The translations under genes were made by a program, and so were the position numbers. Below, piece by piece: positions 53,605 through 53,890 of a DNA stretch of 64,000 nucleotides. Positions within the stretch are counted from its first letter, which is position 1. Each line of letters begins with the position of its first letter. The notes under the pieces were generated by a model. That model was not told the origin of the DNA. It ran no database searches and worked only from the letters and a program-made list of their open reading frames with translations. Origin of the DNA: Parachlamydiales bacterium (lineage in GTDB: Bacteria > Chlamydiota > Chlamydiia > Chlamydiales > CALOCV01); assembly GCA_942491955.1 (NCBI GenBank), contig CALOCV010000027.1:250-64249 (forward strand). The letters run 5' to 3'.

Positions 53605-53890
53605 AAACTACCACAGAGCCCACAGAGAACACAGAGGGAGGACATATAGATTGTTTAGTGCATCCAGACATGTCTGAAGAAGTTGTAGAGGATCAGGTAA
53701 TTATAGAAATTAAATCTGTGAATGGAATAGCTCTAATACACGAAGCACAACGACTATCTTATTTAAAGCTCTATGGAACTTGTGCTCGAGGATTGCTGAT
53801 CAATTTTAATGTGAAACGATTGGTAGAAGGCATTCGTCGAATGAAAATATAACCCTCTCTCTGTGCTCTCTGTGGGCTCTGTGGTAGTTT
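53605..53890 (+). mobile_element. GxxExxY C-terminal fragment bounded by 37-bp inverted repeats
   Basis: Arms AAACTACCACAGAGCCCACAGAGA(A/G)CACAGAG(G/A)GAGG (2 mismatches); insert encodes VEDQVIIEIKSV...HEAQRLSYLKL...GLLINFNV.RL..GIRR. Confidence 0.8.

Follow-up and report, generated by a model that had tools for sequence, protein, structure and literature searches.

Inverted arrays of short repeats enclose GxxExxY nuclease genes in bacteria and archaea: a possible selfish DNA cassette and its capture by an insertion sequence in Chlamydiota

A 64,000-nucleotide (nt; 64-kb) stretch of a Parachlamydiales bacterium genome (contig CALOCV010000027.1), hereafter the window, carries the remnant of a GxxExxY nuclease gene between two inverted arms built from short repeated units; all coordinates refer to the forward strand of the whole window. 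This gene-plus-arms unit, termed here the cassette, looks like an undescribed selfish DNA element. The left arm (53600-53641, plus strand) reads AAAATAA-ACTAC-CACAGAG-CC-CACAGAG-AA-CACAGAG-GGAGG, with three heptamer units at a period of 9 bp and a Shine-Dalgarno-like GGAGG at its inner end. The right arm (53854-53895, minus strand) begins 1 nt past the stop codon of the gene remnant and agrees with the reverse complement of the left arm at 38 of 42 positions; each arm presents ACTAC followed by CACAGAG-NN-CACAGAG-NN-CACAGAG. The original prediction, made from the letters of the sequence, had described 37-bp arms (35/37) of CACAGAG(NN) units with a 9-bp period, and three analyses confirm it: a BLAST self-match pairs 53605-53641 with 53890-53854 (37 nt, 94.6% or 35/37), a repeat search returns arms of 42 nt each, 90% complementary and 212 nt apart, and the local alignment score of the pair is 34, compared with 7.3 +/- 1.3 (maximum 13) in shuffled sequence. 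The two-unit pattern CACAGAGNNCACAGAG has five matches in the window, all within the arms, against an expectation of 0.24, and none of 100 shuffles reached five. In single-stranded form the two arms can pair into a stem of about 36 bp that encloses everything between them (folding energy -52.7 kcal/mol, z = -7.9).

Between the arms, the segment 53643-53849 (plus strand) matches TIGR04256 (GxxExxY) with 50.5 bits, above the cut-off of 35, over profile positions 65-115 of 116, and PF13366 (PDDEXK_3) with 49 bits, above the cut-off of 22. Two parts of the gene can be recognized. Codons 1-13 (IDCLVHPDMSEEV, 53646-53684, plus strand) have lost the start codon by a change of ATG to ATA, and are joined at 53684/53685 to the C-terminal part (VVEDQVIIEIKS...RRMKI and stop, 53685-53852, plus strand). 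Intact relatives (loci L076, L038, L103, L040 and L106) encode the full domain, with the GxxExxY helix and a catalytic D...E-x-K. Compared with these, the window copy retains the leader, codons 1-13, codons ~84-139 and the stop; the roughly 70 deleted codons comprise the GxxExxY motif and helix and the catalytic Asp, which leaves the active-site E-x-K in an incomplete domain. Judged from its sequence, the window copy is a pseudogene and thus a dead copy of the cassette, and the arms do tightly enclose only a GxxExxY fragment, as had been proposed.

The cassette is itself embedded in a decayed insertion sequence (IS) of the IS5 family (53327-54134). The terminal inverted repeats of this IS, of the type AGAACCTGTTCAAAATCTTTCTAA, lie at 53327-53350 on the plus strand (AGAACCTGTTTAAAATCTTTCTAA) and at 54111-54134 on the minus strand (TTAGAACCTGTTCAAAATCTTT), and they bound remnants of a DDE transposase (53390-53599). 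These remnants are the N-terminus of orfA (MAHSYPSDISRKQFDKIKPLLESVRKKTRPRAVDLYDVICGISYV and stop, 53390-53527, plus strand), beyond which the transposase is deleted, and a transposase C-terminus followed by a decayed original right IS end (IRR', GTTTTGAACGAGTTTTTAG; together 53536-53599, plus strand), directly after which the cassette starts. On the other side of the cassette, a conserved 3' region of the cassette-bearing IS (53896-53950, plus strand) matches the read-through product P0052 and the same region in L076 and L040. It is followed, just inside the right IS end, by a nested 167-nt MITE (miniature inverted-repeat transposable element) with IS-like termini (AAGAACCTGT...ACAGGTTCTT, 53951-54117), a near-perfect palindrome that gave only sub-threshold Rfam matches to miRNA-precursor and hairpin look-alikes. 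Intact homologues of the transposase occur in L103, L076 and L125, and relatives carry the Pfam domains PF13340, PF01609 and PF13586; the carrier family has a DUF4096 plus DDE_Tnp_1 transposase encoded by orfA and orfB with a slippery A-run, and its named relatives are IS5 family transposases of Rhabdochlamydia and Protochlamydia. The flanks of the window IS read ...TTTA before TTAGAACC and AGGG after GGTTCTAA, where the A/T-rich end makes the call of a target duplication ambiguous. The window copy is a passenger in this IS5-family element, which has been gutted of both transposase and nuclease gene. The host is divergent: its MnmE is at most 62% identical to any database protein (named matches are from Protochlamydia and Parachlamydiaceae), the proteins flanking the cassette are singletons in the database, and look-ups of the exact products P0023, P0001 and P0336 gave no match.

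Close relatives of the window copy form a decay series. A protein search with the window fragment returned 57 mostly short products of 75-90% identity, many of which have differing internal deletions and some of which read through into an arm. A scan of metagenomes found the 20-nt arm core in more than 120 stretches, where the 77 convergent arm pairs form an unbroken size range of 64 nt to about 495 nt. At its lower end stand bare hairpins and at its upper end full-length copies, which include five distinct intact open reading frames (ORFs) of 139 amino acids (aa), while copies of intermediate size retain the first and last codons of the gene, that is its 5' and 3' ends. Because traces of the gene, in this case of its 3' end, remain even in the bare hairpin loops that were examined, the size series is one of deletion derivatives. 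Copies had been proposed to lose coding sequence while keeping their paired ends, and the 64-495 nt series bears this out; with both ends retained, the interior deleted and intact relatives available, it resembles a MITE-like family in these respects. Among the intact copies, synonymous divergence (dS) ranges from 0.16 to 1.26 and the ratio of non-synonymous to synonymous divergence (dN/dS) from 0.05 to 0.10, values which indicate strong purifying selection on the intact cassette protein.

Several other arrangements of the same arms were seen in these contigs. Among L006-L125 there are 39 divergent pairs, in which a minus arm and a plus arm are separated by a spacer of 6-40 nt (e.g. L058 5600-5720 and L012 230-330); some are central in longer palindromes, and others form part of a distinct repeated element, seen in sample Ga0153954, whose flanks are conserved. 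L088 and L096 contain tandem arrays of decayed cassettes with a period of about 148 nt. In L145 (2408-3030) the gene has a plus arm on each side, and a minus arm comes 45 nt after the second of them, so that a direct copy of the left arm follows the gene and is itself followed by a hairpin, which suggests nested or tandem events.

The history of the association between cassette and IS can be read from a comparison of carriers. The full carrier IS is about 1.46 kb long (L076, L103 and L125) and consists of the left repeat, orfA/orfB with the A-run slip site, the cassette, a 3' region of about 85 nt and the right repeat. Cassette-free relatives of about 865 bp are found in Rhabdochlamydia oedothoracis (L206) and in L207, with transposases of about 77-80% identity, and in both the stop codon of the transposase overlaps the right repeat. 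Alignment reveals that the cassette-bearing IS retains this old right end, which L040 has intact while L076, L103 and the window show it in decay, and that the arm of the cassette starts 1-2 nt past it. Retention of the old end directly before the arm indicates that the cassette was captured as a passenger by means of a new right end downstream. The cassette abutted the right end of an IS5-family element of about 865 bp and was captured by a new end some 600 bp further downstream. This gave rise to an IS of 1.46 kb, which together with its MITE derivatives went on to multiply in environmental Chlamydiota. Indeed, hairpins in MITEs with IS ends (L024, L028, L072 and L083) are identical at different sites and have the IS ends as their boundaries, and it was therefore the IS transposase that did the copying in the chlamydial lineage; among the close-family copies, no single derivative was found at several sites with the arms as its boundaries. 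For 29 of the 77 arm pairs, among them two intact cassettes, no IS sequence could be detected to either side, and the cassette interior is found pointing in either direction with respect to the IS transposase.

Outside the chlamydial lineage, the same type of arm accompanies GxxExxY genes over a wide taxonomic range. The family is very large: an exhaustive profile-free search yielded 12,403 clusters at 50% identity (E <= 0.001). Flanks were examined in the best-scoring 80 of more than 586 loci, which came from scanning genomes with an alignment of varied family members and one peptide pattern, [LV]GLLINFNV. They represent 80 species in at least 12 phyla of bacteria and archaea (among others Chloroflexota, Acidobacteriota, Planctomycetota, Verrucomicrobiota, Bacteroidota, Cyanobacteria, Chlamydiota, Gemmatimonadota, Desulfobacterota, Ignavibacteria and archaea of the Methanosarcinales), and their proteins are 52-71% identical to the chlamydial protein. 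Two-tandem-domain GxxExxY proteins of about 265-295 aa (P0058-P0060, P0063, P0066 and others) rank among the best-scoring relatives in the profile-free search. At each locus, the 220 nt upstream of the gene were matched against the reverse-complemented 220 nt from its downstream side, with the same geometry elsewhere in the locus as control. The best inverted-repeat score averaged 19.5, versus 8.9 in the controls, and in 48 of the 74 testable loci it reached 16 or more, above every control; controls were rarely above 13.5. Nearly all of these arms are of one kind, composed of two to four C[AG]C[AG]GAG units (CACAGAG, CGCAGAG, CACGGAG, CACAAAG or CGCGGAG) with a modal spacing of 9 bp (193 cases; 8 bp, 74; 10 bp, 64; 11 bp, 24) and a conserved outer end TT(C/A)AC, in which A occupies position -2 in 91% and C position -1 in 79%. 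The inverted periodic arms that the original prediction expected in the flanks of many GxxExxY genes are present in most of the intact genes sampled, and the check proposed with that prediction came out in its favour.

In 40 of the 80 loci the gene is flanked left and right by strict clusters of at least three units, whereas shuffled sequence yielded no cluster. Conversely, when convergent pairs of clusters 200-2000 nt apart are taken as the starting point, 41 out of 46 enclose a GxxExxY gene and the remaining five enclose no ORF. Gene-less convergent arm pairs, which had likewise been anticipated, exist in the close family and lie near many of the sampled GxxExxY genes, other phyla included. 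The arms abut the ORF, which encodes a protein of about 125-140 aa, and whole units mostly measure 430-520 bp. They fill short intergenic spacers, with the neighbouring ORFs at median distances of 12.5 nt (upstream) and 32 nt (downstream), and all four orientations relative to the neighbouring genes are found.

Comparison of filled and empty sites places the boundaries of the unit at the arms themselves. The cassette of Bacteroides finegoldii (intact protein WP_032839887) is a 462-bp unit, TTCACC...GGTGAA, that begins 1 nt past the radA stop codon and stops 5 nt short of the start codon of the following gene; in Parabacteroides distasonis the same two genes, radA and that for a FAD-dependent protein, are 13 nt apart and the site is empty, and in Phocaeicola a different gene lies at the radA site. 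In Sphingomonas parapaucimobilis the junction of fabD and fabG contains the cassette, with arms TTCACGCGAAGGCGCGAGGACGCGAAG and its reverse complement. Across this junction S. paeninsulae and a further five Proteobacteria fall short by about 436-460 bp, and the alignment places the whole length difference between the fabD stop codon and the fabG ribosome-binding site. On this sequence evidence the arm-to-arm unit behaves in both comparisons as a precise insertion without target duplication, in agreement with the expected filled/empty sites; like a homing gene, it is precisely present or absent at a conserved site, here between species or genera. No target duplication is visible at either site and none emerges statistically from 53 loci, where the longest words common to the 12-nt stretches outside the two arms have the same distribution as those of mismatched controls. 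Two other identities for the arms were considered and rejected: the position of the cassette inside the fab operon argues against strong transcription terminators, and the arms are not integron attC sites, as there is no integrase and there are no arrays.

The protein encoded by the intact units has the residues expected of an enzyme. The D...E-x-K and the GxxExxY helix are invariant in the family, and these are the invariant residues predicted for an active PD-(D/E)XK nuclease. An AlphaFold2 (AF2) model has a core with a predicted local distance difference test (pLDDT) score above 90. Foldseek gave weak matches (E about 0.01) of this model to Cas4, the Hjc resolvase, exonucleases and a PD-(D/E)XK homing endonuclease, matches that only confirm membership of the restriction-endonuclease-fold superfamily, and a sequence search of the PDB with the GxxExxY protein returned no match. 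The original prediction had mentioned different periodic arms on a second copy and had distinguished cognate from non-cognate arms. Across the family there is one conserved motif family, and the unit variants fall into no clear cognate classes. The variants do not follow host GC content (rho 0.006) and track protein identity only weakly (rho -0.10, p 0.007; identity 0.594 versus 0.591 for A-type and G-type units), which makes the purine positions look degenerate and not like determinants of specificity. The joint conservation of protein and arms extends far past the point at which synonymous sites are saturated.

As shown above, the gene-plus-arms unit is a discrete cassette, conserved across at least 12 phyla, which decays to hairpins and was captured by an IS in Chlamydiota; to the overall explanation that adds to these findings a mechanism involving its own nuclease we give somewhat better than an even chance. 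Within this explanation, the most likely role of the arms, to which we lend a little less credence than would make it probable, is that of cis-acting recognition sites for that nuclease. A multimer of the protein would bind the iterated heptamers of both arms, or the stem or cruciform that they form, and would cut at or near the arm ends or at the centre of the palindrome. Through host repair or ligation the cassette could then reach new sites or be copied into existing arm-arm palindromes. Movement would be rare, and much of the spread may be due to hitch-hiking in other mobile DNA and to horizontal transfer. A nuclease acting together with host repair would explain why there is no target duplication, why both orientations occur and why gene-less arm pairs survive. 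A more far-reaching version, which we advance tentatively and consider doubtful, makes the GxxExxY cassettes a new class of autonomous prokaryotic mobile element, in which a nuclease of about 130 aa is the sole element-encoded enzyme and moves a unit of about 450 bp and its hairpins without duplication. The nuclease would in that case recognize C[AG]C[AG]GAG iterons, or a cruciform, across bacteria and archaea. As for the earlier proposal that GxxExxY proteins are the mobilizing or homing enzymes of a small element, the discrete, arm-bounded unit upholds one part of it, whereas in the lineage of the window the spreading was done by an IS transposase.

A number of observations weigh against the nuclease-driven explanation. 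Binding and cutting of the arms, and mobilization by the GxxExxY nuclease, constitute its inferred step. PD-(D/E)XK enzymes hydrolyse DNA and are not known to perform strand transfer alone, so that integration would have to rely on the host. In the chlamydial lineage, every traceable multiplication is bounded by IS ends, and the bare hairpins are decay products and not proven trans-mobilized copies. Both filled/empty comparisons are between species or genera, and none is within a species. The broad sample comes from best-scoring loci and a single peptide pattern, which moreover left out the window's own close family (RGLLINFNV). Plasmids seldom carry the gene (8 of 72,556 records), and none of 50,697 phage records contains it. 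Finally, in these eight plasmid or chromid records the presence of arms splits roughly by identity to the query: canonical arms accompany the genes of Bacteroides (53.5%), Gemmatirosa (54.5%), Bernardetia (52.4%) and Sphingomonas (42.4%), whereas they are lacking in Prevotella (48%) and Fusobacteria (38%), both with direct repeats, in Treponema (38%), with one 16-nt inverted repeat, and in Persicobacter (37%), with none. The arms mark a large core subfamily, of about 42% identity or more to the query, and not all of PF13366.

Some features of these records and of the viral data deserve mention in their own right. The direct repeats at the distant GxxExxY genes are CAGATTTAATCCGTGTACCTAT in the Fusobacteria plasmid (L215) and GGATTTGGAAAGATTT in Prevotella nigrescens (L211), and the Prevotella copy is part of a module repeated eight times in its replicon. 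Comparison of Prevotella strains was uninformative, as this copy belongs to a divergent subfamily with direct-repeat flanks. Scanning viral contigs for the arm pattern turned up only an unrelated coding tandem repeat, (GAGCCCACA)n.

The main alternative makes the unit a stable module, such as a nuclease for defence or addiction, in which the arms serve as autoregulation operators or insulation and which is moved only passively, by IS elements, genomic islands or recombination following horizontal transfer. We regard this as unlikely, albeit a proposal to be reckoned with. In the lineage of the window the cassette is demonstrably IS cargo, and there is neither a target duplication nor recognizable transposase chemistry; one remnant abuts a remnant of an IS630-type transposase, and the strong purifying selection fits a host-useful or addictive function equally well. 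Operators, however, are not normally needed on both sides of a gene, inverted and with a conserved outer terminus. Passive carriage also sits uneasily with an indel that ends exactly at the arms inside a housekeeping operon (fabD-fabG) with no carrier around it, with the many genomes that have gene-less arm pairs, and with the similarity of cassettes from bacteria and archaea at 55-70% protein identity. The remnant next to the transposase is P0039 (L219 1225-1880), in which the right half of a GxxExxY cassette, with the arm CTCTGTG..CTTTGCG..CTCTGCGGTAAAA, is in frame with an IS630-type (DDE_3) transposase remnant. Its interpretation as a clean IS630 insertion was rejected, and it is a junction of two remnants.

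A role at the RNA level is improbable in our estimation. Here the arms would pair in the transcript, as does the stem of a 23S rRNA intervening sequence (IVS), and RNase III would excise or insulate the cassette mRNA, making insertion into an operon harmless. This purpose would be served by the stem, some 36 bp long, that encloses the entire ORF; cassettes do occur in operons and are mostly co-oriented (+/+ 18 versus -/- 6), and a gene for a four-helix-bundle, IVS-protein-like product at L161, described below, has analogous periodic arms. Selection for pairing in RNA should nonetheless favour G-U over A-C mismatches, and on the sense strand these are equally frequent in the arms (104 G-U, 105 A-C); this negative wobble-asymmetry test points to a constraint at the DNA rather than the RNA level. 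A plain stem requires neither heptamers at fixed spacing nor a fixed outer end, and units occur in all four orientations to their neighbours. The covariance models of Rfam 15 gave no match to the arms, and the window has no rRNA and a single tRNA. An RNA-processing role may also coexist with a DNA-level function or with passive carriage.

Very improbable, and already at odds with the data, is the notion that the arms are ends or internal binding sites of the IS5-family element, recognized by its DDE transposase: most close-family arm pairs do lie in that IS or its MITEs, but the IS has its own, unrelated terminal repeats, its cassette-free relatives transpose without arms, and the same motif flanks GxxExxY genes in the 80 sampled species with no such IS nearby. 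That the inverted repeat is biologically meaningless, a product of chance or low complexity, has in its favour nothing beyond the simplicity of the repeated unit and is already refuted by the shuffle controls and by recurrence at hundreds of independent loci.

The window contains two further inverted or GxxExxY-like features. A second GxxExxY remnant, missed by the original prediction, is situated at 24054-24167 (plus strand; HKTLGGPGLLEGVYESCL...), contains the motif that names the family and matches the hidden Markov model (HMM) with E = 0.0025. Its right arm has CGCAAAG/CGCTAAG units (24133-24155), and it is 190 nt from a tRNA gene (24343-24415, minus strand). The other feature is an imperfect inverted repeat of 47 nt (9594-9640 and 9698-9745, minus strand), which had been presented as a stub holding the other half of the gene between different periodic arms. 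The repeat is real (score 22 versus 8.4 +/- 1.3) and its arms form a separate family, with units like GCAGGAT/GCAAGCG. The GxxExxY identity of the 57 nt that it encloses is weak, as the interior has no significant match to the family (HMM E = 27); the only support for a possible, weakly resembling N-terminus is 8 identities in 15 residues to the chlamydial GxxExxY N-terminus, at the matching position. The remnant at 24054-24167 is the better second example in the window. A 30-nt direct repeat (AAAATAGAGTGCAAGGTCTAGGAATGTAGG, 97% identical; 9438-9467 and 9993-10022) brackets the region of the 9594 palindrome, and a bare palindrome of the same arm family (ACAGGATAAGCAGGATCGCAAGCGGCATGATGAGCAAGATGATAA and complement) occurs at L123 2320-2420, where the opposite arm end faces the loop. 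It represents a second repeated palindrome family in chlamydia-like metagenome contigs.

Several known systems share features with the cassette. The repetitive extragenic palindromic sequences (REPs) and REPINs with their RAYT proteins also combine a small enzyme gene between inverted short repeats with gene-less hairpin pairs in intergenic spacers and no target duplication. RAYTs, however, are HUH/Y1 single-strand transposases of the IS200/IS605-like type, while the GxxExxY protein is a PD-(D/E)XK nuclease according to PF13366 and the AF2/Foldseek comparison. REPs are small palindromes, in contrast to the non-palindromic arrays of two to four heptamers, and RAYT genes are usually single-copy and vertically inherited, whereas GxxExxY genes are multi-copy and horizontally spread. 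Homing endonuclease genes, including the PD-(D/E)XK enzyme I-Ssp6803I, are likewise small selfish nuclease genes that give a precise indel without target duplication, and for a homodimeric nuclease that recognizes a palindrome, each arm would correspond to one half of the target; I-Bth0305I, of the PD-(D/E)XK homing type, is among the weak fold matches. Homing genes have neither iterated-repeat arms nor hairpin derivatives, and occupy one allelic site instead of many unrelated ones. IS elements with MITEs or passenger genes have terminal inverted repeats and deletion derivatives that keep their ends, and the window copy truly is an IS passenger, but the cassette encodes no DDE, HUH, serine or tyrosine recombinase, causes no duplication and has iterons for arms. 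In Tn7 and Mu, several repeated binding sites are present at each end, and a restriction-enzyme-fold nuclease (TnsA in Tn7) acts at the ends; TnsA requires the DDE transposase TnsB and Tn7 leaves 5-bp duplications, unlike the cassette with its single protein of 125-140 aa.

The intervening sequences of 23S rRNA genes, known from Leptospira and Coxiella, contain a small ORF for the S23p four-helix bundle within inverted repeats that form a long stem, and such ORFs belong to large paralogous families dispersed over arbitrary sites. They resemble the cassette in that an ORF is enclosed by long-stem inverted repeats. Locus L161 (700-1200), from a metagenome-assembled genome of Desulfatiglans, has a gene of this four-helix-bundle, 23S-rRNA-IVS-protein-like type at 787-1122, with 40% identity to the probe sequence used in the search. 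Short inverted arms, periodic but built from another unit, lie on both sides of the gene (ACGGTATACGGTGTACGGTTTGAGGTATAAGG upstream and, downstream, GGTTTACGGTATGAGGTGTAGGG as its reverse complement). This single case hints at another small scattered gene family with its own iterated arms, and genes for four-helix-bundle 'IVS proteins' may constitute a sister class. The window copy itself differs from an rRNA IVS in its location outside any rRNA gene, in its protein family and in a strand symmetry without selection for RNA pairing, and cassettes in general lie between protein genes.

A survey lists the function of the GxxExxY family as "Unknown" and notes multiple horizontal transfers (PMC3424549), and the family is mentioned in passing elsewhere (PMC8934634). 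No description of the arms was found in searches of the literature on GxxExxY, PDDEXK_3, PF13366 or TIGR04256, on IVS proteins or on palindromic elements. There is a substantial chance that the cassette, as an inverted-repeat-bounded selfish unit with its decay products, represents a new class of element.

The cassette turns an anonymous annotation into a testable system: a fixed unit with an iterated motif on both sides, discrete insertion and hairpin relics. A putative DNA substrate is now defined, filled and empty sites exist in culturable Bacteroides and Sphingomonas, and the active-site residues are known. For annotation, the arm motif can flag decayed cassettes which are now called as short, odd ORFs. 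Should the nuclease not mobilize its cassette, the arms would still be a conserved cis element in need of an explanation. If it does, DNA would be mobilized by an enzymatic route that is new, and a class of intergenic palindromes, together with some of the hairpins in IS-derived MITEs of environmental chlamydiae, would be explained.

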